Assembly: GCA_963921275.4 (NCBI GenBank)
Contig: OZ001293.3
Location: 1,600,001-1,664,000 of the forward strand
Reading direction: 5' to 3'
Source of the DNA: an uncultured Hormoscilla sp.
GTDB lineage: Bacteria > Cyanobacteriota > Cyanobacteriia > Cyanobacteriales > Desertifilaceae
DNA: 64,000 nucleotides
Shown: positions 11,219 through 57,031 of the stretch, piece after piece
Layout of the letters: every line of letters starts with the position of its first letter
Position numbering within the stretch: position 1 is the first letter of the stretch
Made by a program: the position numbers and the translations under genes
The notes under the pieces: model-generated
Told to the model about the DNA's origin: nothing
Seen by the model: the letters and a program-made list of their open reading frames with translations, nothing else
Database searches by the model: none

Positions 11219-11643
11219 TCAGATTTGAGATTGCGCACGAGATGAGATCTCAGCTAGCTGGGCTCGAACTTTTGTGAGATTTACATGTTCCACCTTAATT
11301 GTACAACCTAGCCACTGAACTGACAATTGGGCAAACAGCTCCGGAGAGCCGCTGACTCCAAACCGGGTTGGTAAAAGAGAGCGCGAATTTCTGTATCCTA
11401 GTTCTTGAGCGGCGGCGGCAACTACATGTACAGCTGGGTCAACTAACTGCACTGAGTGGGGTAAAATCCGGCGGAGCACTGGACAAACTGTTGGATTTGG
11501 GCCAGTTCTCGGGTGCCATAGGGGAGTCGAGCCGTATCGGCAAAATAAAGAATCGACTCCCCAGATAGTTGCTGGTATATCTGTCTCAAAACAGTCAGAC
11601 CACCAACACCACTGTCAAAAATCCCAATCCGTCCGTTTTGCAT
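11219..11643 (-). pseudogene. murI: Glutamate racemase with a large internal deletion
   Basis: N-terminal RIGIFDSGVGGLTVL..YFADTARLPYG joined out of frame at about 11483 to C-terminal PVLRRILPHSVQLVDPA. Both catalytic Cys motifs are missing. Confidence 0.9.
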
Positions 11644-13603
11644 CTGTCTGTATTTTCTGTAACTTCCCAGGCCCGACATGACTAATTTGCCGCAGATACC
11701 GAACAATCCCCTCCGCGATCGCCTCAGCCATGCGGCGGCGGTAAGCCGGGTTACTTAATCTAGCCGCATCTTCAGCACCGGTTACAAACCCAGTTTCCAC
11801 TAAGACGGCGGGCATAGAAGTTTTCCTGAGAACGTAAAATCTAGCTCGCCGCACTCTCCGGTCTGGAATACCAGTGCGTCGCAGAATGCTGTCGTGGATA
11901 GTCCTGGCCAGGCGTCCGCCAGTGTCATAGTAATAGGTTTCTAGCCCATTCACATCGGGACGACTGAGACTAATCGCATTAGCGTGGATGCTGACAAATA
12001 AACTAGCATTTACCCGTTCGGCAAAATCCACCCGGGGCTGCAAGTCAATTTCCCGATCATCATAGCGAGTCATTACTGCTTGGATGCCTTGTCGCTGCAA
12101 GATTGTGGCCACGTGTCGGGAGATCTCCAAGACTACCTGTTTTTCTTGCAAGCCGCCAATGCCAATAGCACCAGGGTCTCCCCCACCATGACCGGGATCG
12201 ACCACCACGACAAGGCGCGAATTGTTTGTCCGACCAGGATTCCGAGGAGAAGGCCGTGGTTGAGATAAAGATGGATTAGGAGGTGGCACATCAATCACGA
12301 TCGGACCAGTGGTTCGATTCACCGGCGGGACTGTCAGATTTCTGGTGGCAATGGGTGACAGTAGCAGGGATATATCTTGACCAGACTGACTGAAATTTTC
12401 GATTGTGTAACCGAAAACTGGGCGCAAGGAAACCACTACTCTGTTAAGATCTGACTGCTCTATACTCAGGTGCGACAAGGGATCAGTTGAATTTAACTGG
12501 GGTGTTCTAGTTTGGCTACTCAGTCGTGCCCGAGAGATTGTCAGCTTGTAGACTGCGGGTGTTTCCCATCTACCCATAGCATTCACCGGGCGATCGGTCC
12601 TGATTATCAGTCGAGATCCAAACAGTTGAACCGACTGTATGGTAGCAGTTTGGTCAGACCCAGGATCGGCGCTAGCTAACTGTTCTCTAACTGGCCAAGT
12701 CTGACCGTCTGAGGGCAAGGCAGTACTGCGACGGTCCGGTAAGAGTATAATCGCGTTTCCACTAATCTGTGCCTGCCAATTGGGGCTATCTTCTGTGACA
12801 GAAAGAGTAATACGAGTAACGGCAGGTGAGGTTTCAACTTGAGAGAGTCTGACCTTTTTAACACCTTTGCTGTCGATCGATAATTCTCGCTGCCTCAGAT
12901 TAGGATCGATGCTTGCTCCCGGTAGGTCGATATTAATCTCCGTGCCATTTTTACTGCGCTCTACATTTTTAATTTCTGGAGTTTCCCCTCGGGTGCTAAT
13001 GAAAAAACCACCATGGGTCACCCGCAGATTCTCCACTTGAATTCTCGATCTAGGTATATCACTCTCCGATGTCCGTCGGGTAGTGCGAGTAGCGCTCCCG
13101 GCGGACATCATAGGGGCTGGTCGAGTACCAGGATTTAACGGTGGATCGAAAGGCTCCACCTCTAGCGGAGGATATACAGGTGGAGCCTGTGGGGCGGGAG
13201 GAGATAGATTTAAGGGTTGGGGAGTCGGTAATTGAACTAGCCACTGGCTCGGAGTAGCTCCTTGAAATCTGACTTGTTGTGGGTCGAGGGTATAACCCCG
13301 AATCAATTCAATCACAATCCTAGTAGTTCCAGGGGTAAACTGCCTCACCCGGACCGATCGAATCCCCGGTGTTTTCACCGGCTGCTCTTGCATGCTTCTC
13401 CCTAACCTAACTCCGGGTAAATCAATCACCAGACGAGTGGGGTTGAAGATCAGTTGCGCTCTGGGCTGAACGCGGCTGGATGTCGTAAACTCTAAGCGGT
13501 TGCGGTTAGCATCAAAGCGCCAAAACTGTAAGTTAGCCGCTTGTACGGGACTCGATAGCAGCCAAACACCTAGAGCACCAGATAATAGCCAATGGAATTT
13601 CAC
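11615..13603 (-). CDS. N-acetylmuramoyl-L-alanine amidase with AMIN domains (AmiC-type)
   Basis: Signal peptide; PTRLVIDLPG; VVVDPGHGGGDPGA, FVSIHANA and AVLVETGF. Confidence 0.92.
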   Translation of the reverse strand: MKFHWLLSGALGVWLLSSPVQAANLQFWRFDANRNRLEFTTSSRVQPRAQLIFNPTRLVIDLPGVRLGRSMQEQPVKTPGIRSVRVRQFTPGTTRIVIELIRGYTLDPQQVRFQGATPSQWLVQLPTPQPLNLSPPAPQAPPVYPPLEVEPFDPPLNPGTRPAPMMSAGSATRTTRRTSESDIPRSRIQVENLRVTHGGFFISTRGETPEIKNVERSKNGTEINIDLPGASIDPNLRQRELSIDSKGVKKVRLSQVETSPAVTRITLSVTEDSPNWQAQISGNAIILLPDRRSTALPSDGQTWPVREQLASADPGSDQTATIQSVQLFGSRLIIRTDRPVNAMGRWETPAVYKLTISRARLSSQTRTPQLNSTDPLSHLSIEQSDLNRVVVSLRPVFGYTIENFSQSGQDISLLLSPIATRNLTVPPVNRTTGPIVIDVPPPNPSLSQPRPSPRNPGRTNNSRLVVVVDPGHGGGDPGAIGIGGLQEKQVVLEISRHVATILQRQGIQAVMTRYDDREIDLQPRVDFAERVNASLFVSIHANAISLSRPDVNGLETYYYDTGGRLARTIHDSILRRTGIPDRRVRRARFYVLRKTSMPAVLVETGFVTGAEDAARLSNPAYRRRMAEAIAEGIVRYLRQISHVGPGKLQKIQTDAKRTDWDF

Positions 13604-13699
13604 GAACCGCTCCTCTTTTTTGTCAAAACTCCTCGGTCATTGGTCATTAGATGTTTCTGACCAATGCTAAGGCAAAAACCACAAAACCTGATGACGTTG

Positions 13700-15235
13700 C
13701 TACTTACTTCGATCTGACTCTTTGAGCGACTCCCTTAACTCTTGTTCCGATTGTTCCCGAACGGTAGCTGATACTTCTGCTTTGGGACTCTTTGGTGTCC
13801 CAGTAGGAGTTTCTGGCTTGGTGTCGGATGCTGGCAGGGTGAACACTACCCGCAATAAGGGCGGCGCTAGAAAGGTCGTCAAAATCACCATCATAATAAT
13901 TGCAGCTTGCAAGGGTTCTGAGAGGGCACCACTAGCCGAACCGACGCCTGCAAACACAAGTCCCACTTCCCCTCTGGGAATCATGCCGACGCCAATTGCC
14001 AGCCGGTTAATTTTGCCCGACGCGCCAAACACTGTCAATCCCGTAACTACCTTTCCTACAATTGCTACCACAATCAGGAAGCTAGCGATAATCAGACCCT
14101 CCCGATTACTGGGTACTGCTGGATTTAGCACTCCCAGATCGGTTTTAGCACCAACGGTAACAAAGAAAATTGGCGTGAACATATCGGCAACGGGAATGAT
14201 TTTCTCTTCCAGTTCTCGGCGCAGTTCCGTTTCTGCCAGAATCAGACCAGCAGTAAAGGAGCCAAGTATGGCTTCTAATTGAATCGCGTCTCCAATGTAG
14301 GACAGAATAAAGGTGAAAATGAGGGCAGCAATCAACAGCTGACCCCGCGTTTGCAGTCTTTTGACTAGCCCGACAAAATAGGGCATCAAAAAACGACCCA
14401 ATAAAATCGAGCCAATCAGGAAAACTCCAGCACTGATAATTAGATAGATGACGTTAGTGACTTCGATCTCACCTGTCTCGGCCAGAGAAGCTACCACGGC
14501 CAGAACGATTATACCGAGTACATCGTCTATCACCGCTGCGCCAATGATAATCTGACCTTCGGTAGAAGTAAGACGCTGTATTTCTGCTAGCACCTTAGCC
14601 GTAATGCCAATACTGGTGGCAGTCAGAGCAGCCCCGGCGAAAACGGCTGGGACTGTGGAGACATGAAATAGATAAATCAGCCCAGCTGTACCAGCAGCAA
14701 AGGGTACAATCACCCCAGTCACAGCCACGACTGTTGCGGTGGGTCCGGATTTAAGCAATTCCTTCAAATCTGATTCCAGACCAATTTCAAACAATAGCAG
14801 GATCACGCCCAGTTCCGATAAAACGGAAATGACTTCGCTGGAGGCTTCAAACACGCTGTTGGAGGTTTCTGGGGTGAGATTGGCTGTTCCTTGCAGGAAG
14901 ACCATAATCACGGAATCGGAACTTTGGGCCCCTCCTTCTGGAAAAACCAGCAAGTTCAAGGCAGATATGCCCACAACTACGCCGCCGACCAGTTCGCCTA
15001 AGACGGGGGGCAAGTCGATTCTGGCACAAATCTCGCCGCCGACTTTGCTAGCCAGGTAAATAACAACTAAACTCAGTAACACTGCTGCCAGTACCATGGA
15101 AGTGCTAGGGGGGGCTGCTGTTGGAGTTGCTGTTGCCAACAGGACTTGTCCGGGGGGCGCTCCTGGGATGAAGTTGGTTGGGGTGAAGGTAGTCATCCAG
15201 GCAATTGCATCAACCATTGGTTCCCTATAACTCAT
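13700..15235 (-). CDS. Cation/H+ antiporter, CPA2 family (NhaS3-like)
   Basis: Many TM helices; GAAVIDDVLG and GMIPRGEVGL motifs. Confidence 0.9.
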   Translation of the reverse strand: MSYREPMVDAIAWMTTFTPTNFIPGAPPGQVLLATATPTAAPPSTSMVLAAVLLSLVVIYLASKVGGEICARIDLPPVLGELVGGVVVGISALNLLVFPEGGAQSSDSVIMVFLQGTANLTPETSNSVFEASSEVISVLSELGVILLLFEIGLESDLKELLKSGPTATVVAVTGVIVPFAAGTAGLIYLFHVSTVPAVFAGAALTATSIGITAKVLAEIQRLTSTEGQIIIGAAVIDDVLGIIVLAVVASLAETGEIEVTNVIYLIISAGVFLIGSILLGRFLMPYFVGLVKRLQTRGQLLIAALIFTFILSYIGDAIQLEAILGSFTAGLILAETELRRELEEKIIPVADMFTPIFFVTVGAKTDLGVLNPAVPSNREGLIIASFLIVVAIVGKVVTGLTVFGASGKINRLAIGVGMIPRGEVGLVFAGVGSASGALSEPLQAAIIMMVILTTFLAPPLLRVVFTLPASDTKPETPTGTPKSPKAEVSATVREQSEQELRESLKESDRSK

Positions 15236-15318
15236 CGGGGTATACTGTACAGGTTTATTTACACATTGGGCGAAATTAGATTTACCAATCGGTCTATGGC
15301 TGCGCCCCCAGCGCAGCG

Positions 15319-16134
15319 CTATCGGCCGAACACCCGATGCTTTAATGCAGGCATCTGACGCCGCACTTGTTGCAGGCGTGAGGGGTCAATGTTAGCGCAC
15401 GCCACTCCTGGCGCTTCCCCAGCATCGGCGAGAATCATCCCCCAAGGGTCAATAATCATGGCGTGGCCGTGAGTTTGGCGCAAGGCATAATTGTTCCCAG
15501 TTTGGGCGGGGGCGATAACGTAGCAGGTGTTTTCGATCGCTCTTGCTTGCAGCAGTACTTGCCAATGGTCTTTGCCCGTGTAGGCGGTGAAAGCTGCTGG
15601 TACAAACAAGATATCTGCACCTTTTGATGACAGATGCCGGTACAGTTCCGGAAACCTGACATCATAGCATACGGAGAGTCCCATCACGCCTAAGGATGCG
15701 CAAGCGTAGACTGGCGGCAACTGGGTTCCTGGTTGGACTGTTAAAGATTCGCGATAGGTGTTGCCGTCGGGGAGGTTCACGTCAAACAAATGGACTTTCT
15801 GGTAACGGGCTACTTCGCTGCCAGTTGAGTCTATTAATAAAGCTGTATTATAGACTTTGTCTGTGTCTACCGGTACGGGAAAGCCTCCGCCGAGGATAGT
15901 AATTTGGTACCGCTGCGCCATGATCTGAAGAAATTTTTCGCTCTCTTGGGCAATTATTGCCGCCTGAGCCAGTTTTTCTGACTCGCTGCCCAAGAAGGGA
16001 AAGTTTTCTGGTAAAGTTACCAGTTCGGCTCCCTGATTCACGGCTAGATCTATCAGTTCTTCTGCCTGTACCAGGTTTTTTTCCAGGTCCGGCACGCTGG
16101 TCATTTGAATGGCGGCGGCTAAATACGACTTCAT
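15319..16134 (-). CDS. Carbon-nitrogen hydrolase (Nit1-like amidase)
   Basis: Catalytic triad motifs LPEN, YQKVHLFD and SVCYDVRFPE; ARAIEN. Confidence 0.92.
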   Translation of the reverse strand: MKSYLAAAIQMTSVPDLEKNLVQAEELIDLAVNQGAELVTLPENFPFLGSESEKLAQAAIIAQESEKFLQIMAQRYQITILGGGFPVPVDTDKVYNTALLIDSTGSEVARYQKVHLFDVNLPDGNTYRESLTVQPGTQLPPVYACASLGVMGLSVCYDVRFPELYRHLSSKGADILFVPAAFTAYTGKDHWQVLLQARAIENTCYVIAPAQTGNNYALRQTHGHAMIIDPWGMILADAGEAPGVACANIDPSRLQQVRRQMPALKHRVFGR

Positions 16135-17325
16135 TTGTAACGGTGGAGCTTGTGAGGAACAGATTTATTTAGCATATCTCTTCTGCTGTCAATCCCATAG
16201 AGTTGCCCCGCGACCACCGCGCTAACACCGGCGATACAGAGTCCACCTGGGACAGCCCCACGGGAATGAGACCATGCTCTGAGTGGGAGATGACTACTCT
16301 GTAAACTAAGTAGTCAGTTGTTAGTTGTCAGTTGTCAGTATACAAGATACCCGAAATTCCCACATATAAATGGTTTAAGCTAGTTTAACAAAATTTTACA
16401 CGGGTTAAAACCCTTATTATCTACTATCATTTTCGCGAGCGAGCTGTTATTTATTCAAATATTAAATCTTTATTTCGATATCACTTGATTCCTTTATTTT
16501 TCTTAACATTTTAGATAGATTAATTATCTAATGAGGAAAATTTTAATAGATCGCATTCAATGAGATAGTAACGTGAGTTCGACGAAGCTTAAACGCGCTC
16601 TCCAAAAGCCAGTCCTAACTTCACCGAATCCAGGCAGCAGCAAGCAATTGTCAATACTTAAATACTACATTGAGGAATTTTTCAACTAGCAGCGATTGTT
16701 GAGAACAGCCGAAGGGATCGCGGCCTTGCAGAATTTTTTGTTTGAGTTCAAGGACTTGTACGGTTATCTGCCGGTCCCCTATGGCCAGAGTCGGGCGATC
16801 GAGGGTGAGAGTTTTTCCCAAAAAGAAGTCACCAGACCTATAATAAAGATAGTTTTCACGAGGTCTGATGTTATGGAAATTAAAAATCCTCTTGATCTTA
16901 CTCAAATTTTTGGCGACGTGGATGATTTTTGCCAAAATGAGAGAATACTACTGGCAGCAGCAACCGCTGTTGACTTCAATAACCGGGCTCGGTGAAAAAT
17001 TATGCCGTTCAAGAATGAGTTTGAGGGAAGTGATGACCATGGCAATTGCTTTTCTAGGTTGCTGGCTTTAGAAATTTAGGTGAGTTTTATACTCTACAAG
17101 TAATCCCCCACTGGCCTAAGGCAATCCCTGTATCTGGTCAGTTATAATCCTTTTGTAGATGCCTTGGTCATTAATGTTGTTGTGTTGTTTTTGACAGACT
17201 ATAAGGGGTCAAATTACTGGTATTAGTTTCGTTGATTCGACTCCAATTGAAGTCTGTCATCCCTGCCGTTCCAAGTCTCATAAGGTATTTGAGGGTTTAG
17301 TTGGTTGGGGAAAAAATTCTCTGGG

Positions 17326-17381
17326 CGATATCACTTGACAGCCATGAGCTCCTATCGTCTCATGGCTGTCAAGTGATATCG
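17326..17381. repeat. Perfect 23-bp inverted repeat (hairpin) inserted in the IS982 transposase
   Basis: CGATATCACTTGACAGCCATGAG-10 nt-CTCATGGCTGTCAAGTGATATCG. Confidence 0.85.
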
Positions 17382-17594
17382 GGATGGCACTAGGGAAACA
17401 AAGCTGCATCTAATTATTAATGATCAAGGAGAACTGCTTGCATTTAAGCTCACACGGGCGCAATGTTGACGAGCGCAAACCGGGACCTGACTTAACCAAA
17501 GATATAATCGGTAAACTATTTGGAGAGCGTGGATATATTCCCCAAGAGTTATTTGAGAAATTATAGGAGGGAGGTTTAGCAACTGATTACCAGT

Positions 17595-17712
17595 CGGTGT
17601 CTCCTATGCATGTGCGATCGCCCAGGCCCATGTGCAGGGCATGTAGCGCGCTGCCGAAACGTGGGTAGTGCTCAACCGCGCTCCCACGTTTCGGCAGCAC
17701 CAGGAGACACCG
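17595..17712. repeat. Nested palindromic element inserted in the IS982 transposase
   Basis: Outer IR CGGTGTCTCCT..AGGAGACACCG, related to 998-1072. Inner IR GCTGCCGAAACGTGGG..CCCACGTTTCGGCAGC. Confidence 0.75.
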
Positions 17713-18316
17713 AAGCAAGAAAAATATGAAACAGAAATTAATTAAGTTAATAGATAAAATTTGATTGCGGAAACGGGTCTTAATTTAAACAGTTAATGAC
17801 CCCCCTTAGAACATCTTTAAAATCGAACATTCCCGCCACAGAGTGGAATTTTTTAGTCAATCTTTTGGCTGGATTAACAGCTTACACCTATTTACCTAAA
17901 AAACCATCCCTCGATTTAATACCAAAAGGCTTACCTGCTCTACCTCCGGCTGTGTTTTAACTCTTCTAGAGGGAGCTCGTCCTGAGCAGAAGTAGTGAGT
18001 ATTTTTGCTGTTTGCAACAAGAGCACATGCTACAGGATATAGTACTGACAACTAACAACTGACAACTGTCGAACTGACGTGATAGTAAATTGACATACAC
18101 CAGTTGAATCTCTCATACTTCTTTGAGGTTTTAGATTGCCAAACTCTCTCGTCGAGAGAGTTTCAGGTATTATCTGTAGCAATATTTGGGTTAAATGAGA
18201 TCGGCCTACAGTGAGGCGATCGCACTTTCCCGACTAGATTACCAGTCCTAAAACTTCTCTTTATTCCCGAAAATATTGAGCCAATTAAGAAAAAATCAGA
18301 AAGATAGAAAAATCTA

Positions 18317-18325
18317 TGTTACAAT
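18317..18325 (+). promoter_or_regulatory. Extended -10 promoter (TGTTACAAT)
   Basis: TGn-TACAAT at the end of an A-rich tract, just before the structured segment. Confidence 0.5.
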
Positions 18326-18344
18326 GCCAATAAGATCGCGCCCC

Positions 18345-18635
18345 GTACCCGCCGCGTGCCAACTGTTTGGGCTGCACTAGATGGGATGAGCAATCATACT
18401 CAGTTATTAGAGAATAGGGCATCTGATTAAACGAGTCTCAAGCTTCCACTTGGGGTAAGCTTGAGTGGTAGGCTGACGTGGCCCACCCCCTGTTTGCCAG
18501 AAAGGGAAGGGTTGTGGTGACGAGGTCGGTGACTTAAGAGACATGCAACCAGAGGGTAGCATTACCACTGACAAGCAAATTCCTCCATTAAAGATACAGG
18601 TACTCTCACATGGATTTGGCATCCCATCAGTTTAT
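18345..18635 (+). ncRNA. Candidate large structured non-coding RNA (family not recognised)
   Basis: Closing helix GATGGGATG (18380-88)/CATCCCATC (18620-28). Hairpin CTCAAGCTT/AAGCTTGAG (18437-65). Nested stems TGGTAGGCT/AGCATTACCA and GGTTGTG/TGCAACC. No credible ORF. Confidence 0.5.
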
Positions 18636-18663
18636 CTCCTATTTTGAACCAGAACAAGTATCC

Positions 18664-19645
18664 GGGTGCATCTCACTTTTGCATCTGTGACCTATCATAG
18701 AATTTTATCTATGATAAAATTTATTGGCTTTGGCCAAGGATGCATCTTACTTTTGCAAAAACATCATGTAGAAAGGGTCCCATTTATATAAGCACAACGT
18801 AAAGAAAGTATTTGGGGAAGGTTGGATATATTCCATTGAGCCCCTGAAATTTTTATCCGTGTTCCCATACGTTTAATCACTGATTCTATTGAACCAGAAC
18901 CGATAGAACTCACTGATTCTAACTGATAATACTGATAATCAATTATTCGAGAACGATGTTTTTCCAAATAATTACATAAATTCTGAGTTTCTTTTTGATC
19001 CGATTGAATAATAGTATTGTTTCATCAACTTTTCCCGACCAGAGGAGATTTTTAGCTTTTTTTATCCTCGTAGCCTCCTACTTTATGAAGATTTTCCTTG
19101 AGATGATACCAATCTAATATTTCTCTTCTCTTGCCTGGTTCGCCTATCTGTTTAAATAATTTCCAAATTCCTGCATGTCCATCTCCTAGACAATAAAATG
19201 GAGCCAAAAGTTTTTGACAATTTACCCAATCAAGTTGGCTCTTCTTGAAAAAATGCTCCGCAATATATCCCACTGACTGCTTTATAATCTTTCCATTCAC
19301 AAGCTTGTCCTTTTTCTTCTGTTCTAATCCTTGCTTTTCCACCAGGCGACTTCTTTCACTCCCAATACTGATGTTGGCAACTCAAAATCCTGCCTTTGAA
19401 CTAATCTATGTAATGTACTATGACTAATTTTTATTCCCGTGAGCTCTGCTAAATCATCTTCAGTTTTTTGATTCATTCGCACAACATAGCATTTTTCTCC
19501 ATTTTGGGACTGTATTTCACATGAGACTTCAAAATAATTAGCTTGTCGATTGGTGATTGATATCTTTCCCTGTTGTCAATTGACGTTTTTTTCCTGTTTT
19601 TATCCCCGTATTCAATAATTTGTGAGTTCTGGACCCACTCTTTCG
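18664..19645 (-). mobile_element. ISKra4-family transposase remnant (frameshifted, 5'-truncated)
   Basis: Fragments CLGDGHAGIWKLF..EILDWYHLKENL, HRSRIIDYQYYQ..SIGSGSIES..RIKISGAQW and HSTLHRLVQRQ. End-like sequences GG(G/A)TGCATCT(C/T)ACTTTTGCA at 18664 and 18738. Confidence 0.8.
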
Positions 19646-20463
19646 AGAAGCTTCTTAACCAGTTGGCTGCACTGGAAGCGCAGCTGCGGGACACCCAGTT
19701 CCTGGCGCCTTGCGTGCGTGGGGGTTCGGTGCTCGCGAATGTGGCTGGTATTGTCTACAGCTTCACGCCCAAGCCCCGCAAATTTGAGGGTTGGGGCATC
19801 TTTCAGCCGGTGGATTCCAAAACTGCCGAAGTTGTCGAAGAACCTAGCTTATCCCAACTAGGGGAATATCTCAATTTGCTCAAACCTCTGCGTCTGCGCC
19901 TCGTATACAAATTGCTTGGACAAACTTGGCTAGCTTATCCAGTCAATGAGTCCGATGCCCGACAGCGGTTTGGTAAAGTTAAGCCAGTGCCGGTGCATCT
20001 TGTGAGTGAAGGGGGACAATTTGAACAAATCATTGCCCGTGTCGATGGCAGGTCTTGGTGGTTTGAAGAGATCGATCGCCGTGCGGATCCACTGGTGATG
20101 GAAAAGTTGACAGAGCAACTTAAGCAGGTAACGGCACCCGAGGAGATCCAGTTCAAGGGGATGACGCCGGAAATGCGGACTGTTTACCAGATGGCTGCGT
20201 CGCGGGTGAAGGATTTTCAGACTGCAAGTGATGAGAAAAGTTTGCAGAAGGCGTTGCGGCAAGGTGGCGGCGAGTTACAAGACTTTTCCGATAAAGGTGA
20301 TTTCTGGCGGGTGGAGTGGACGACGGCGGATGGTACACGCCATAATTCTGCTATTGGCAAGCATGACTTAACGGTGATTAGTTCTGGGATTTGTTTGAGT
20401 GGGCGCGATCGGGATTTTGATCTGCAATCTTTGGTAGGAGTGATGAAAGGACGAGACCGCTGA
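19646..20463 (+). pseudogene. Uncharacterised conserved protein whose native start was probably removed by the adjacent ISKra4
   Basis: Clean ORF KLLNQLAALEAQLRDTQFLAPCV..EGWGIFQP..TWLAYPVNESDARQR..DLTVISSGICLSGRDRDFDLQSLVGV. The in-frame N-terminal extension 19573-19645 is IS sequence read on the opposite strand. Confidence 0.65.
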
Positions 20464-20541
20464 AGATGCGTGAGGGGGCGTCTCGTCCGCCCTACATCCC
20501 CATTATTTTGAGGCTACACTAGGCTGCTTGAGAACTCCCGA

Positions 20542-20937
20542 TCAGGTTAAGAATAAACTGGAGCCATCGAACATCTCAATTGTAAAATCAGAGCCTGAAA
20601 CTGATATTTTTGATGTCAGATATGGTAATACTTGGAAGCAAGTAAGAGTACGATCGGGGCTGAATAGCAAAACTTCCAACTCACTCAGGACTGCGGTGAA
20701 ATTATCTGCGATCGCAATTTGGAAAAGGGGCGTCATTAGGGACATGGCTATGCAAATGTGACCCTTTTCCAAATCTATTGCTGCTAACCTTTGATCCACT
20801 CCCACCCAAAGAGTACCGCCATCGCTTGACAATTCAACACAGGGAGTAATTATATCCCTTCCCCCAACAAAGTCCGTAATTCCCCAATGTTTTGCCCAAG
20901 TCGATAATCCCAAATACGTGAGAATGTTCGTTAACAA
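20542..20937 (-). CDS. Hypothetical protein, possibly 5'-truncated
   Basis: 131-aa ORF with globular composition and no recognised motif. Confidence 0.45.
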   Translation of the reverse strand: MLTNILTYLGLSTWAKHWGITDFVGGRDIITPCVELSSDGGTLWVGVDQRLAAIDLEKGHICIAMSLMTPLFQIAIADNFTAVLSELEVLLFSPDRTLTCFQVLPYLTSKISVSGSDFTIEMFDGSSLFLT

Positions 20938-21025
20938 TTATCTTTCAGGTGGCTTCAAGTTGATTGAATTATAATTCACTAATCCTTTTGATATGGCCTT
21001 GGCTGTCCGCAAGGTTCATCATTTA

Positions 21026-22507
21026 CTATTTCTTGAGCTTATCTACTATTTTACCCACTGTCAGGGAGTACAGTTGCGACAACATATCCGATCGCACCAG
21101 TAAGAACCTTCCGAACCTAAACAATAAGGTGGCGGCGATCGCGGCCCCAACAGGCGGTCCCAATAGGGTAGCGTAATACCGGATAGTTTCTACAGACACT
21201 AGCTTTTCCACAGATCCTAGCTTTTCCACAGACAATTTATCTTCTGTCTGAAGTCGCCCTGCTAGGAAGGAACCTACCGCCCATCCTACTCCCAGATCGG
21301 TAAGCAATTCTTGAAAATTTTTATCCCTCTTCACCTTTTCGACTGCTACGCTACTCTCTGTCGCTTTAATTACTTCTTGCAGCAATTTCATCCCCGTCCA
21401 CATGTTACTCCTATCCTTGATGATTTGCTGCAAATATTTCTCCTTGAACTCGGCGATAAATATATCTAAAAATTCCAGTTCTGTCTCCGCTTCTGCTTTT
21501 AAATTCAGGGCTTTATTTTTCTGTGCGCTCTCTGCGCTCTGATAATTTTTCAGATTGATGTCGATCGCCCCTTTGAGCAAATCCAGCGTTCTCAAGAATT
21601 TTATATAGCGATCGAATGACCCTTGCAGATCGTATAATTTTTCATTGAGTAAGTCTATTTCTCTACGTTTAGCGAGACCTTTTTTTATGTCTGACTCAAC
21701 CTTTTCTATCTGACTAAATTTACTTTTCAGCTCGTGCTTCAGAATGCGATTCTGTCCGTAATTCCAGAGAACTTTGTGGCGAAAGAGAAACAGCCTCATC
21801 CACCCATCATAGAAAAATGCGGCTAGATCCGCTGTTTCTCTATCTGGATAGATGATAATGATGACATGCTGGTTATCTTGGATATCTTGGATCCTTGCCT
21901 CTCTGGTCGCATCCTCTTTTATGACGATGCGATATTTGGAGAGTTCAAAAATATCCGCTCCCATCAACTTTCCTTGTTTTTGCAAGTCGTTTTCCCACCT
22001 TTGGGAGCCCATTAATGCTGCATAGCAAGCTTCCGCCATTTCTGCGGGTGTTTTCTCTGAACCCTGGGGCAACCAACCTGATATCATCCAGGTTTGACCG
22101 ATCGTCGGTTGTTGCCCCAGGAGTCTGTTTTGCTCGATCTCCTCCTTCAATTCGGCGAAGCATTTTGCCCGTTGCGGTGCCGATTTATCGTTAACCGAAC
22201 AGTCTACCACCAATCCATAAGCATCGTTTATGCATACGGGATAATAATATCCTTTGTAGCATTTTGTGGTATCCTCAAACTGTGCCTCTGTTTCCTGCTT
22301 CTGTTCGTCCAGTAGTTGTATATATTCAGCTTCAAATCTATTATCATTTGCAAACAGGTCTTCACCAACATTTGCTGGGAGTTTCTGCTTGAATTTCTCT
22401 CTACTCTGGTTAACTTCCGCTGGCGTATCCCCCAGACCCTCTCTGAGATCGTAGAGAAATAGATCCAGCGTGTGATAGACTATATCACTCATTATGTTGT
22501 CCGTCAA
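21026..22507 (-). CDS. Hypothetical protein with a coiled-coil and C-terminal hydrophobic segments
   Basis: 493-aa ORF; TLDLFLYDLREGLG near the N-terminus; two hydrophobic stretches near the C-terminus. Confidence 0.75.
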   Translation of the reverse strand: MTDNIMSDIVYHTLDLFLYDLREGLGDTPAEVNQSREKFKQKLPANVGEDLFANDNRFEAEYIQLLDEQKQETEAQFEDTTKCYKGYYYPVCINDAYGLVVDCSVNDKSAPQRAKCFAELKEEIEQNRLLGQQPTIGQTWMISGWLPQGSEKTPAEMAEACYAALMGSQRWENDLQKQGKLMGADIFELSKYRIVIKEDATREARIQDIQDNQHVIIIIYPDRETADLAAFFYDGWMRLFLFRHKVLWNYGQNRILKHELKSKFSQIEKVESDIKKGLAKRREIDLLNEKLYDLQGSFDRYIKFLRTLDLLKGAIDINLKNYQSAESAQKNKALNLKAEAETELEFLDIFIAEFKEKYLQQIIKDRSNMWTGMKLLQEVIKATESSVAVEKVKRDKNFQELLTDLGVGWAVGSFLAGRLQTEDKLSVEKLGSVEKLVSVETIRYYATLLGPPVGAAIAATLLFRFGRFLLVRSDMLSQLYSLTVGKIVDKLKK

Positions 22508-22552
22508 TATTATTTACTACGAAGGCAATCTCTCAAGGGATAGAGTACAGGG

Positions 22553-22712
22553 TTATAACATTGCTATCCGATCGCTGTCACCCTAAAGGGTGCGGCTACA
22601 AGAACCAAGCCCGCCTGCGCGGGCTATAATACAAGATTATAACATTGCTATCCGATCGCCGTCACCCTAAAGGGTGCGGCTACAAGAACCAAGCCCGCCT
22701 GCGCGGGCTATA
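22553..22712. repeat. Tandem duplication (84-bp period) of a REP-type palindrome
   Basis: Two copies of ..CACCCTAAAGGGTGCGGCTACAAGAACCAAGCCCGCCTGCGCGGGCT... Related copies at about 29350-29400, 36828-36870 and 43035-43090. Confidence 0.85.
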
Positions 22713-27969: not shown

Positions 27970-28420
27970 GAAAACATCCTCCTTACTATCTCTAATTTTT
28001 TCTGGTTCCCTTGTGGCAAGAAACCGGGTTAGAGCTATATGCTAGCAGTCTTTATCCAAGGTTGAACAAAGAAATCCGGTTTCTGGTTCCACCGGATGAA
28101 TGCGATCGTCTGGGCAAAAAACCGGGTTTCTACGATATCCTTTAGCTTTACCCAAGGCGGAAATAAGAAACAAAGGTGATGGTTCCACCAGATGGGCGTG
28201 AGTCCCTTTGACTGGTTAAGGCAAGAAACCGGGTTTCTGGGATATCCTCTGGTCTTTGCTAGGATCGATCGGGCGAAACCCGGTTTCTGGAGCGACGTGA
28301 GCCCCCATCACCGTAGCCAGATAGCGGGTAGGGCGCGATCGCCATCAATAAGGTGCCACGATGTGATGTCTGTCACAATTGTCGTCCCCCAGCCATTGAT
28401 AAGCCAGCCTTTCGTGGCGA

Positions 28421-29148
28421 GGGAGTCTCGGTCAACACCGGTGCCAGCAGGTGGGGCGACTGCAAGCAATAAGGTGACAGACTGCGAGCAATAAGGTGAC
28501 AGACTGCGAGCAATAAGGTGACAGACTGCGAGCAATAAGGTGACAGACTGCGAGCAATAACCTCGCAGCTCGGGAGTCTCGGTCAACACCGGTGCCAGCA
28601 GGTGGCGACTGCGAGCAATAACCTCCCTGCGATCGCCTCGCTGCGCAGCTCGGGAGCCGGTCAACACCGGTGTCAGCAGGTGGAGCGACTGCGAGCAGTA
28701 AGGTGACAGACTGCGAGCAATAAGTAATAGGACAAAATTAATTACACCGTGGGCTTTGACGTAGGGTGGGCACCGCCCACCACGCAGTTAAGCCAACGTT
28801 CCGAATGTGTAAATATTTTTGTCCACCTACTTAAGGTGACAGACTGGGAACAATAAGGTGACAGACTGCGAGCAATAAGGTGACAGACTGCGAGCAGTAA
28901 GGTTACACTCTGCGAGCAATAAGGTGACAGACTGCGAGCAATAACCTCGCAGCTCGGGAGCCAGTCAACACCAGTGCCAGCAGGTGGCGACTGCGAGCAA
29001 TAACCTCCCTGCGATCGCCTCGCTGCGCAGCTCGGGAGCTTGACAACACCGGTGCCAGCAGGTGGAGCGACTGCGAGCAATAAGGTGACAGACTGCGAGC
29101 AATAAGGTGACAGACTGCGAGCAATAAGGTGACAGACTGCGAGCAATA
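28421..29148 (+). repeat. Composite 22-bp-period satellite (GACTGCGAGCAATAAGGTGACA units plus ~60-bp GGGAGTCTCGGTCAACACCGGTGCCAGCAGGTGG modules), split by a MITE
   Basis: Period 22 measured at 28501/28523. Blocks 28421-28722 and 28832-29148. Same family as 56028-56967. Confidence 0.9.
28721..28833. mobile_element. MITE (TAAGTA..TACTTA family) inserted into the satellite
   Basis: IRs AAGTAATAGGACAAAATTAATTACAC / GTGTAAATATTTTTGTCCACCTACTT. TAA of the host unit is duplicated. Confidence 0.75.
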
Positions 29149-29615
29149 ATACCATTTTATTAAAGATATGATATACTTGATAGGCGCGGATTCCCAGGAA
29201 GCAGGAGCCGAGCGAAGACCGTTCCCAGGTAGAACCTGGGAACGAGGGAATGGTCTGAGGATGGTATTACAGACTGCGATCGCCTCCGGTGAGTGCGATG
29301 GGTGTGATCACAAGTAGTTGATAGCCGGGTGCATCTTAGATGCATGTAAATAGCCCGCCTGCGCGGGCTTTGTTCCTGTAGCTGGACCCTTTAGGGTTCG
29401 GGCTGTGTCTCCCGAGGGACACAGAAGGCGAGGCCGAGTAACAACGGGTTTTGACCACACCCAGTGCGATCGCTTGGCAGCATTAAGAAACTCGGTTTTG
29501 TGGAAAAACCGGGTTTTGGGGCTACGATCGCCAGCAACAGAATGTGAATATCCCCGCAGCAAAAGCGAGATACTCCCCAGCTTGCGAGCCACAGATGAGT
29601 TGTGGTAACCGGTGG

Positions 29616-30715: not shown

Positions 30716-32399
30716 TTATGATGATTGACGCCCTTCCCGTTCAGCTTCCAGTTCCCGTAAACGAGCTTCCAATTCCAGGAATTTCGCTTCCAAGTCCAGA
30801 TATTTCGCTTCCCATTTCTGATATTTCGCTTTCCATTCGGTGGATTTCAGCAACCTTTCTCCAGTTTCCATATCTTCCAGCAATAAACGACCATCCTGCA
30901 TACTGATCCACAACCCGATCGTCTCGCAGGAAATGCGTCCGTCATCGTCTGGAATAATAGGTAGATAGCGTTCGGCTACTAACCGATAACCCAGCACCTC
31001 ATCAATTACTTGACCGCGCAGACTGCGGCGATCTATAATTACATATTCACCAATGGAAGCCTGTTCGTATTGGAGCACTTTAGTTTGCTTGTCTTCCTTG
31101 CGGTAACGAGGCGATACCACTTCCAGAACAAAAACTGGTCGCACTCCTTCCGACGCAACTACAAAGGTAGAACGATACTGCTGCTTGTTGCGGATGCCAA
31201 ACGCCACAAACAGGTCTGGACAGTGCTTTTTCAAATCGGGATTATCCCATTCGATGGACAGGTCGGTGAATACTCCCACTGTTGGGTCCCGATCGCAGCG
31301 ATTACTCAACATATCCCGAGCATCCCTTGTAACATCAGAGTGAAAACTATTGCTAGGCAAATTATAACCCTCCTCCGGGTGCAAGGATGGGGTCGAGCCG
31401 GGAATCGCTTCCCGACCCTCCCTTGAGGAACCGGACTTGCGATTTTCACCGCATCCGGCTACTGGGTACTAGGCCCTTTTCATAGGTAGACTTAATAGGA
31501 ATTACTTCCGTTAGCCCTTGCCGCCTGTCTTTTCTTCCCTTTCCTGGTTTAGCGAGTGGTTGTTCTGATAACCGTTAGTATCACCATTTTCAAGTCAGTT
31601 TTACCAGTTATCCATACCTTATCCTCCACTTGCGTTTCGGATTAGTTCCGTGGCTTTTTAGGATTACTCATTCCAGCAGCTTCCTAGTATCACCGACCCA
31701 CGTCAGCGCTGGCTACCCAGCATCATCTACATTACTGTAGATGTTATCCCAGGAATTACCCCGGGCATTCGCTTCTTGGGCCATCCCTCCCCCCGTGGCT
31801 TGCGCTTAACATCTAACTTGTCCTGATGGACAGCACACGAGAGGTTACTTCGTTCCCTAACAACATTTCGCGATACCTTTAGGTCCACACTATACCCCGG
31901 GAGCTATTTGAGTACTATATTAGCCAGAGTCTAAAACTAATACTAGCTACCATTTCCTTTTTAGGCCAGCGCATATAGCCTTATTTCGCTGGTTCCTTAT
32001 AACGAGGCTTGCACATGTTTGCCTGCTCTAACCTTGGATATCTTTCCTAGCGGCGTCACCGGCTTAGGCTGCCAGTTATCCTACATTTGAGTCCTCGCTT
32101 AGCACCACGATGATGTCGCTTCGTAGCACCGAGGACCGGTGTCACCCCCGTACCTGGGGGGAGGGGAATTTAACCCCCATGCGGTCAGAGTTCCCGGCTA
32201 ATGAAACCGGGCTAGCGTTCCGTGTTTGACCACGTTAGGCTAGAACGAATCGCACAAACTCCATAGAGGTTAGAGGAACCTGGATATTTTTAATACTACC
32301 GTCCGGCTGCACTTGCTCTTCATATCGCTAGCCAGTTTCAGCCAGATCCGCAGCCTGTTCCGTTTGTACAGTGGGCGATCGTAACCCAGACTTGACCAT
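30716..32399 (-). pseudogene. Second Uma2-family endonuclease, interrupted by a group II intron (exons 32399..32256 and 31384..30716), with a TAG in exon 1
   Basis: Spliced VPLTSMEF|LHPEEGY matches the paralog's VPLTSMEFLYPEEGY. Exon 1 reads TG*RY versus TGWRY. Confidence 0.9.
31385..32255 (-). mobile_element. ORF-less group II intron (871 nt)
   Basis: 5' GTGCGATTCGTT; domain V AGCCGGATGCGGTGAAAATCGCAAGTCCGGTTC; domain VI. Boundaries fixed by the intron-less paralog. EBS1-like AGACTC (31927-32) sits in a stem-loop and is complementary to IBS1 GAGTTT. Confidence 0.92.
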
Positions 32400-35959: not shown

Positions 35960-36869
35960 GCACAGGTGGGTTCCGATAGACTCACCATCAGTAAATGAGC
36001 TACCGGTCTATTCCCGATCGCTCCTGGCATTGGTAAGTAGTTAGACAAAAAGGCGTTGCACATTTTGGGGATGATAAGTACTTGGACCGACTTATTTACA
36101 AATTACTTTCTTGCAGGATATGGCGCTTCGCGCCTCAATTATATGTAATTAATTTTGTCATACTACTTAAGTGACCAGCGATCGGTGAACAGTGACCAGC
36201 GATCGGCATAGCTTATGTATGAAATTTATATATGACTAGATACTGATATTAGCAATTAGCAATTAGAACTAGCCTAAATCTCTGGTGTAAAAATTATGAG
36301 GTATCGCGGCTGAAACCCTGGCAGGGTAACGACTTCAGCAAACCTATATTGCACAACTCATTTAGGGGAGCTATAGCAATTAGCAACCATCATCCCGAAA
36401 ATATGCAACGCCAACTTAATTATGCCAAAACCCAGGTACGACGAATACGAAGTGCGCAACCCAGGAGCGCTAGAGTAAAACCTGTCTCGTCATGCAGCGA
36501 TCGACGAGGGAGGCTGGGAGGAGATGGAACGTAAATAGGGTCTATTTGTATACAGGGCGACGCCGGAGCGCTAGCGGATTGAACAAATACGGTCCGATCC
36601 AATCTTTAAAGTTGATTGCGTTTTTGAAGGTCAAACCGAATTACCTCTATCTTACGGCGACTATAGCACTTCTGGTGATTAGCCCAGGGAAAACGCATCT
36701 AAATCCTGGAAGCCTTTCCCAGTAAGCATTATGGAATTATATAAGTATAAATACTCTGGATGCTCAAACCCTTGTCCTGTAAGCGTTTCAAAAATAAGAT
36801 GCGTTTACCCTGGTGATTAGCCACCCCCACCCTAAAGGGTGGGGCTACAGGAACAAAGCCCGCCTGCGC

Positions 36870-55680: not shown

Positions 55681-56070
55681 ATGACATTCCATAACCCGCC
55701 AACAGAGAAATAAGGTATCTATCTTTACGATCCGACCAGCATCAAAACAGGGGGACCAGCGCGGATATTTTCCCAGGTGGGAGAAGATGGAATCCGGCGT
55801 TATATTGTGGAAAAGATGCGGAAAAATTTTGTAGAGAAAGGTCATGTTTCAGAACCTTTAAGGCAGATGCTGGAAGGAATAGAGGAAATAGGTAAGAGTA
55901 TAAAACAGGGGTGGGGGAAAGTAACGACATTACTGGCAGATTGGGAATTCATCAATTCCGGGTGGCTGAACTTTGACCTGCCTCCGGGAGAGCAGTTCAA
56001 TACTAGCTATGCTGTAGATCGTGACAAGGGAGTCTCGGTCTACATCGGTGCTAGCAGGTGGCGAGAGTGA
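55681..56070 (+). pseudogene. Hypothetical gene remnant running into the satellite
   Basis: Strong RBS (GAAGGAGGAG) and ATG at 55681, in-frame TAA at codon 11; the 3' end overlaps the repeat leader. Confidence 0.4.
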
Positions 56071-56967
56071 GTAATAACCTCGCAGCTCCGGAGCCTGTCT
56101 ACACCGGTGCCAGCAGGTGGCGAGAGCGAGCCATAACCTCCCAGACTGCTCGCAGTAAGGTTACACCGTGCCAGCAGTAAGGTTACACGGTGTGAGCAGT
56201 AAGGTTACACCCTGCGAGCAGTAAGGTTACATCGTGTGAGCAGTAAGGTTACACCCTGCGAGCAGTAAGGTTACACTCTGCGAGCAATAAGGTTACACTC
56301 TGCGAGCAGTAAGGTTACACCGTGTGAGCAGTAAGGTTACACCCTGCGAGCAGTAAGGTTACACCCTGCGAGCAGTAAGGTTACACCGTGCCAGCAGTAA
56401 GGTTACATCGTGTGAGCAGTAAGGTTACACTCTGCGAGCAATAAGGTTACACTCTGCGAGCAATAAGGTTACACTCTGCGAGCAATAAGGTTACACTCTG
56501 CGAGCAGTAAGGTTACACCGTGTGAGCAGTAAGGTTACACCGTGTGAGCAGTAAGGTTACACCCTGCGAGCAGTAAGGTTACACTCTGCGAGCAGTAAGG
56601 TTACACTCTGCGAGCAGTAAGGTTACACTCTGCGAGCAGTAAGGTTACACTCTGCGAGCAGTAAGGTTACACTCTGCCAGCAGTAAGGTTACACCGTGCG
56701 AGCAGTAGGGTTACACCGTGCGAGCAGTAGGGTTACACCGTGCGAGCAGTAAGGTTACACCGTGCGAGCAGTAAGGTTACACCGTGCGAGCAGTAAGGTT
56801 ACACTCTGCGAGCAGTAAGGTTACACCGTGTGAGCAGTAAGGTTACACCGTGTGAGCAGTAAGGTTACACCGTGTGAGCAGTAAGGTTACACCGTGCCAG
56901 CAGTAAGGTTACAGACTGCGAGCCATAACCTCCCAGACTGCGAGCCATAACCTCCCAGCTTGCGAGC
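56028..56967 (+). repeat. 22-bp tandem satellite: 35 core units of (G/C)AGCA(G/A)TA(A/G)GGTTACA plus 6 partly variable nt, with leader and trailer modules
   Basis: GTAAGG recurs from 56155 to 56903 at an exact 22-bp period. In-register flanking units GAGCCATAACCTCCCAGACTGC occur on both sides. Confidence 0.95.
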
Positions 56968-57031
56968 AAGTTAAAAACCTACCTTTGTAAGCAATACGCC
57001 CCCCGGACGGGCGAGACGCCCGTCCTACGAA

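Follow-up and report, generated by a model that had tools for sequence, protein, structure and literature searches.

In the window, the whole 64,000-nt stretch of Hormoscilla sp. DNA analyzed here, a segment at 18317–18635 lies between the wrecks of two insertion sequences and contains several stretches that can pair with one another. Does it hold an RNA gene? The initial annotation took it for a multi-domain structured ncRNA of about 290 nt, heading a transcription unit that ISKra4 had disrupted. Comparison with related loci makes it very probable that 18317–18635 is no RNA gene and represents what an ISKra4-family element left of a gene for a cNMP-binding sensor histidine kinase, namely the sequence 5' of the start codon and 18 codons. 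The features of the locus are collected in Table 1.

Table 1. Features at and around the candidate, with positions in the window; L001 and L002 are the corresponding loci of two other Hormoscilla sp. assemblies.
Feature	Position	Strand	Remarks
Degraded IS982-family element	16545–18128	+	Specific to the window genome; separates the candidate from the upstream amidase/nitrilase-family gene
Native intergenic DNA	18129–18316		Common to L001, not alignable with L002
Extended -10-like motif TGTTACAAT, possible promoter of the kinase gene	18317–18325	+	Motif in sequence
Upstream/leader region of the kinase; main part of the proposed RNA	18340–18609	+	Non-coding, neutral-like rate of change
Hairpin GGTTGTG...AGGTC-GGT-GACTT...TGCAACC	18510–18550	+	Only proposed structure kept in all three genomes
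Start codon and codons 1–18 (MDLASHQFISYFEPEQVS) of the cNMP-binding sensor histidine kinase gene	18610–18663	+	Holds the 3' arm CATCCCATC (18620–18628)
5'-truncated, frameshifted ISKra4-family element	18664–19647	-	Stands in place of the remaining kinase sequence and the initial codons of the downstream ORF; terminus at 18664–18684
Downstream ORF of unknown family, 296 aa as listed	19648–20463	+	Native 5' end replaced by ISKra4 sequence

Pairing, folding and known RNA families

The elements from which the RNA had been assembled are present in the sequence. The extended -10-like motif is located where it had been placed, and the segment is richer in G+C than its flanks, as had been observed (0.485–0.49 over 18300–18600 versus 0.32–0.45). 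The ends pair through 9 bp between GATGGGATG (18380–18388) and CATCCCATC, with additional pairing of AACT (18361–18364) with AGTT (18629–18632). Inside, GAGAATA (18410–18416) faces TACTCTC (18601–18607) with a single A–C mismatch, CTCAAGCTT (18437–18445) and AAGCTTGAG (18457–18465) form a perfect 9-bp hairpin, and TGGTAGGCT (18466–18474) pairs with AGCATTACCA (18558–18567) with one bulge. The helices GGTTGTG (18510–18516)/TGCAACC (18544–18550) and AGGTC (18523–18527)/GACTT (18531–18535) were likewise found. Every complementarity of a free-standing multi-domain ncRNA of about 250–290 nt, closed by 18380–18388 and 18620–18628, therefore exists, and a motif of the extended -10 type lies upstream of it.

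Folding energies were compared with those of dinucleotide-shuffled sequence. For 18330–18640 (311 nt) the energy was -88.2 kcal/mol versus -92.4 ± 5.8 kcal/mol for the shuffles (z = +0.73), with 76 of 100 shuffles equal or better; the minus strand of the candidate gave z = -0.60. Cutting the sequence exactly to its pairing ends (18380–18628) favors the hypothesis of an RNA. The minimum-energy fold then includes the closing helix, as a free-standing RNA would have it, but even this choice of ends brings z no lower than -1.33, with 17 of 200 shuffles equally good. The L002 orthologue folded worse than its shuffles (z = +1.20), 176 of 200 being equal or better. The energy of the segment does not fall below that of shuffled sequence, the behavior by which a structured ncRNA would be recognized.

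Perfect inverted repeats of at least 9 bp with loops up to 300 nt number 158 in the window versus about 62 in first-order Markov simulations. At least one such repeat is held by 1011 of 3184 sliding 320-nt windows (32%), which argues against reading the 9-bp end pairing as the closure of an RNA. When 100-nt windows were moved over the candidate, z reached about -2.2 only where the 9-bp hairpin was included; as background, 27 of 280 such windows on the plus strand of 15000–22000 had z < -2. The helix features are no more than chance gives.

Covariance-model searches with Rfam 15 gave no match at the locus, in keeping with the earlier view that it does not look like tRNA, tmRNA, RNase P, SRP, 6S or group II domain V. 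Over the whole window at gathering score, just two tRNAs and a group II intron domain at 31387–31463 were found, with nothing near the candidate. At E ≤ 10, the only match in 18100–18900 was SNORD57 (16.1 bits versus a gathering score of 47), and the L002 orthologue matched only DdR6 and Pox_AX (E = 2 and 9.6); all of these are noise. Known families, including tRNA, tmRNA, RNase P, SRP, 6S, riboswitches, group I/II introns and HEARO, were accordingly rejected, there being no Rfam match at gathering score or at E ≤ 10. The order GGGAA...GGTG...CCACTG in the candidate may resemble the core of the cobalamin riboswitch RF00174. A riboswitch of this kind was also rejected, with no Rfam model match in the window or L002 at E ≤ 10. 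The segment is like riboswitch-type leaders such as RF00174 in its length, its raised G+C content, its position as non-coding DNA 5' of a gene and its several potential hairpins; it differs from them in having no Rfam match at E ≤ 10, no covariation and helices that are cut by indels.

The group II intron domains V/VI at 31387–31463 (minus strand; RF00029, 44.4 bits) belong to an intron or fragment about 13 kb downstream of the candidate. Other repeats of the window include long arrays of 22-nt tandem repeats at 56018–57000 and 28414–29209, with at least 35 copies at about 56 kb and related units at 28.4–29.2 kb. In addition, an 84-nt repeat family with a ACCCTAAAGGGTG-type hairpin occurs in direct and inverted orientation at 22537–22704, 36786–36869 and 29350–29397, and looks like a MITE.

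The start of a sensor kinase gene and its break

To find homologues, genome contigs were scanned with the translation of the candidate's minus frame, which served as a tolerant probe for the DNA. The scan returned L001 and L002, both syntenic with the window and the latter at a contig end, together with a third locus, L003, from Hyphomicrobiales. By blastn, window 11481–16544 corresponds to L001 15425–10455, 18129–18555 to L001 10411–9999 (93%) and 19648–20335 to L001 9088–8401 (96%). L002 matches the window at 13140–16262 and 18450–18663, with no match in the intergenic DNA upstream of 18339. Gene order (amidase-family gene, candidate, kinase) is the same in the window, L001 and L002, and in L001 the agreement extends to the 296-aa ORF. 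In a plasmid collection, neither 18300–18660 (blastn) nor the intact kinase P0001 described below (tblastn) found a match.

An ORF of L002 (628..104) starts MDLASHQFISYFEPEQVSQLC at the position matching window 18610 and begins MDLASHQFISYFEPEQVSQLCQLAILENF. Its first 135 residues were searched against proteins of 306–2000 aa at E ≤ 1e-5, which gave 153 matches among 349 candidate proteins. Among the 120 matches listed, the proteins are 360–406 aa long and carry the domains cNMP_binding (PF00027), HisKA (PF00512) and HATPase_c (PF02518). The two best, P0001 and P0002, are intact and 92% identical to the L002 remnant. The window and L002 were then aligned with nine of the 120 listed homologues (361–371 aa). 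The same methionine start is present in all nine and in the L002 ORF, and M1, H6, F8, Y11 and F12 are invariant in the N-terminus. Window residues 1–18 are identical to residues 1–18 of P0001, with divergence at residue 19, and an in-frame TAA can be read five codons upstream of the ATG at 18610. Since the methionine and the N-terminal residues are shared with intact homologues, 18610–18663 is the head of the sensor kinase gene.

This start bears on two earlier statements. The segment had been described as containing no credible ORF. For the leader this stands, as two of its longer frames, 18477–18647 (plus) and 18407–18631 (minus), have no Pfam match, and the longest frame across the candidate, of 74 aa on the minus strand, has no words in common with any of 5.8 billion proteins. 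It fails at the 3' end, where a protein-coding gene starts. Moreover, the 3' arm CATCCCATC of the proposed closing helix falls within codons 4–7 of the kinase (A-S-H-Q, with H6 invariant), and the start being fixed by all nine aligned homologues, this location argues against a free-standing RNA.

Similarity to L002 stops at 18663, and similarity to L001 is regained only at 19648, within the following gene, so that about 1.1 kb of the kinase gene and the start of its neighbor have given way to the ISKra4 fragment. The claim that the segment heads a transcription unit disrupted by ISKra4 is thus borne out, with the kinase gene starting at 18610 and breaking at 18663/18664, where the ISKra4 terminus is found. 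The L001 version of the downstream ORF has the residues MADIGKLLNQL upstream of the equivalent of 19648, and these first codons are missing in the window. The ORF itself has no Pfam or NCBIfam match.

On the minus strand, 18767–19575 matches NCBIfam transpos_ISKra4 (NF033572) in three fragments covering profile positions 347–422, 226–301 and 132–166 of 422 (E = 1.2e-24, 1.6e-15 and 3.7e-05). Each is below the full-length cut-off because the transposase gene is broken, and the element lacks its first ~130 codons. Short, near-identical matches to its 21-nt terminus (18664–18684) occur at L001 488–516, 4119–4139 and 4645–4664, which suggests that these may be further ends of the same ISKra4 element family.

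The second element, upstream of the candidate, belongs to the IS982 family. Its frames 17195–17338 and 17414–17566 (plus strand) match Pfam DDE_Tnp_1_3 (E = 3.6e-12 and 4.5e-07) and NCBIfam IS982 (E = 7.4e-10 and 0.0011). Window positions 16544 and 18129 are 44 nt apart in L001, which is collinear here and has no IS982-family element; the insertion is therefore a recent one and specific to the window genome. The element contains two perfect palindromes, of 23 bp (17326–17348/17359–17381) and 16 bp (17650–17665/17683–17698). With local fold z of about -5 to -9, these are by far the strongest structures in 15000–22000, and they have the appearance of small inserted hairpins by which the transposase frame was disrupted.

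The kinase gene appears to be broken in all three Hormoscilla genomes by different lesions (window 18610–18663, L001 9198–10021 and L002 3–628). The L001 copy is truncated at its 3' end, carries a frameshift and has a 5' deletion that starts at 18556 and reaches into the cNMP-binding domain. In that of L002 the reading frame is shifted by 1 nt, although this could be an error of assembly. The pattern looks like several independent losses of a single signalling gene. In text searches of PMC6520454 and PMC7313196, pseudogene, transposase, coding density, insertion sequence, mobile element and genome reduction gave no occurrence.

Conservation of the helices and rate of change

The initial annotation had proposed covariation among homologues as a check on the RNA and had named homologues lacking compensatory changes as a refuting outcome, which is the outcome observed. 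In the alignment of the window, L001 and L002, compensatory (both-side) changes are absent from all 50 proposed pairs, in a comparison of low power among three closely related sequences (~89–98% alike). Indels in one or other relative remove an arm from each of three helices. The window and L001 both have the 5' arm GATGGGATG of the closing helix, which lies inside a 27-nt segment (18381–18407) missing from L002, while the 3' arm is lost in L001 through the deletion from 18556; for eight of the nine pairs, both letters are found in the window alone. The 5' arm of the 9-bp hairpin lies inside a 23-nt segment (18427–18449) missing from L002, and in L001 a T-to-G change breaks one of its pairs. 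In the TGGTAGGCT arm, L001 lacks 7 nt through a deletion and L002 leaves two cells unpaired; L002 in addition has 31 extra nucleotides after 18555. The helices are not conserved. With no compensatory pair, arms removed by indels and one closing arm that is coding sequence, the proposal of a ~290-nt multi-domain structured ncRNA is contradicted.

The 23-nt segment 18427–18449 and the sequence immediately 3' of it are reverse complements, as might result if a template switch had produced an inverted duplication in the lineage of the window and L001.

The hairpin at 18510–18550 keeps 12 of 12 pairs in the three sequences, with one U–A to U–G change and none that is compensatory. RNAalifold, applied to the same alignment, selected different local hairpins. 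It found double changes in 2 of 63 pairs, one of them a G–C to A–U change in the hairpin at 18467–18487, and its covariation term was unfavorable (+1.79 kcal/mol). The conserved hairpin and the double change beside it speak for a structured leader of the kinase gene, now a relic, but the covariation term speaks against it, and an invariant hairpin of 41 nt is uninformative among genomes that are ~90% alike.

The rate of change of the leader bears on the same alternative. Over 18340–18609, 193 of 217 aligned columns are identical between the window and L002 (0.889), with six indels (2, 27, 23, 1, 1 and 31 nt; 85 nt in total). Between L001 and L002, 138 of 156 leader positions are identical, as are 368 of 399 in the kinase region. 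In 179 frame-intact columns of the kinase, the three codon positions are alike between L001 and L002 (0.90, 0.88 and 0.88 identical). As the codon positions are equally diverged, the kinase remnant behaves as unconstrained DNA. The leader diverges about as fast as this adjacent dead gene (~0.89 versus 0.88–0.92), which, like the 85 nt of indels over some 270 nt, counts against a relic leader. Fourfold sites of four neighboring genes are 0.76–0.90 identical between the window and L002 (~0.80 weighted), those of the adjacent amidase-family gene being 0.90 identical. That leader identity is above the pooled value is weak evidence for some mild constraint, and 18340–18609 can be aligned with L002 whereas the intergenic DNA further upstream cannot; both points favor a former leader. 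Because only three sequences are compared and the downstream gene appears broken in each, the decay of a once-functional leader cannot be separated here from lack of function.

In the columns of the -10-like motif TGTTACAAT, L001 reads TGTTATAAT, which keeps the motif, and L002 reads CGATGGCAG, which does not. Over 18317–18339 only 10 of 23 positions are identical between the window and L002. Sites of the form TGNTANAAT, of which TGTTACAAT is one, number 25 in the window versus 9.8 expected. It is plausible that TGTTACAAT was formerly the promoter of the kinase gene.

Competing readings and the fate of the gene

As the head of a dead kinase gene, the segment would have the following history. 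Its upstream part may comprise an extended -10 promoter and a leader of up to ~280 nt. The kinase gene was cut after codon 18, with the 5'-truncated ISKra4-family element replacing the remainder and the start of the next gene. The IS982-family element inserted later, ~480 nt upstream, and the stub was left stranded between two insertion-sequence wrecks. The paired stretches are probably chance complementarity, two of them in lineage-specific indel segments, and the stub is presumably functionless DNA now. Compared with the leader of a two-component sensor kinase gene (PF00027 + PF00512 + PF02518), the segment likewise runs into a conserved start and 18 codons, is syntenic in two related genomes and changes at a neutral-like rate. 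It differs in having lost the gene body, the truncated ISKra4-family element taking over at 18664.

The alternative that survives best, itself improbable, is that the kinase gene had a cis-acting structured leader, a riboswitch-like or protein-binding 5' UTR element that is now a relic, its real part being mainly 18510–18550 and perhaps 18467–18487. Besides the hairpin and the identity values given above, its location directly 5' of the start codon and on the same strand agrees with such an element. Against it stand, in addition to the points already made, the lack of any Rfam match at E ≤ 10 in the window or L002 and folding that is no better than that of shuffled sequence in either. A more specific form is slightly less probable again: a ~270-nt, lineage-specific regulatory leader with its core in the hairpin 18510–18550, perhaps with 18467–18487, would have tuned translation or stability of the mRNA of a cAMP/cGMP-sensing kinase in Hormoscilla-like cyanobacteria, and would be a relic here.

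An origin of the segment by decay of another protein-coding gene or of a mobile element, such as an IS end, a MITE or a retron-like msr/msd, is very unlikely. Its place between two insertion-sequence wrecks, in a repeat-rich region, would suit such an origin, but the segment is found at the corresponding syntenic position in two further genomes, and the IS982 insertion is lacking from one of them. As initially noted, there is no second copy in the window, nor was one found in the three related loci fetched (~51 kb). With a single copy in the window and these loci, at a fixed syntenic location, an IS end or MITE was rejected. The minus frame without protein homologue and the lack of a Pfam match for two frames, one on each strand, also argue against another gene. 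The sole match outside Hormoscilla, in L003, was rejected as a link to an anthranilate-synthase-like gene; it is a chance match of just 26 of 30 nt inside that ORF, and tblastn of the 510-aa product against the three loci gave nothing below E 3.6 and no wider similarity.

The msr/msd ncRNA of retrons is a structured RNA flanked by terminal inverted repeats, beside a reverse transcriptase. The 9-bp inverted repeat that brackets ~230 nt of the candidate is a likeness to this arrangement, and the end pairing may be likened to the retron a1/a2 repeats. The candidate differs in that no reverse transcriptase was found among the 16 neighboring frames scanned, one arm of its repeat is kinase coding sequence and the other is absent from L002.

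The free-standing ncRNA is the least probable reading, its closing helix having one arm in the kinase coding sequence and each arm missing from one of the two relatives.

If 18317–18635 is read as the head that a dead gene left behind, a false lead is disposed of: an island between insertion-sequence wrecks that had the look of a new RNA gene, being richer in G+C, seemingly without ORFs and provided with several pairable stretches. A leader element, if it did exist, would be a minor, lineage-restricted cis-regulator. The locus illustrates the loss of one signalling gene in this cyanobacterial lineage.
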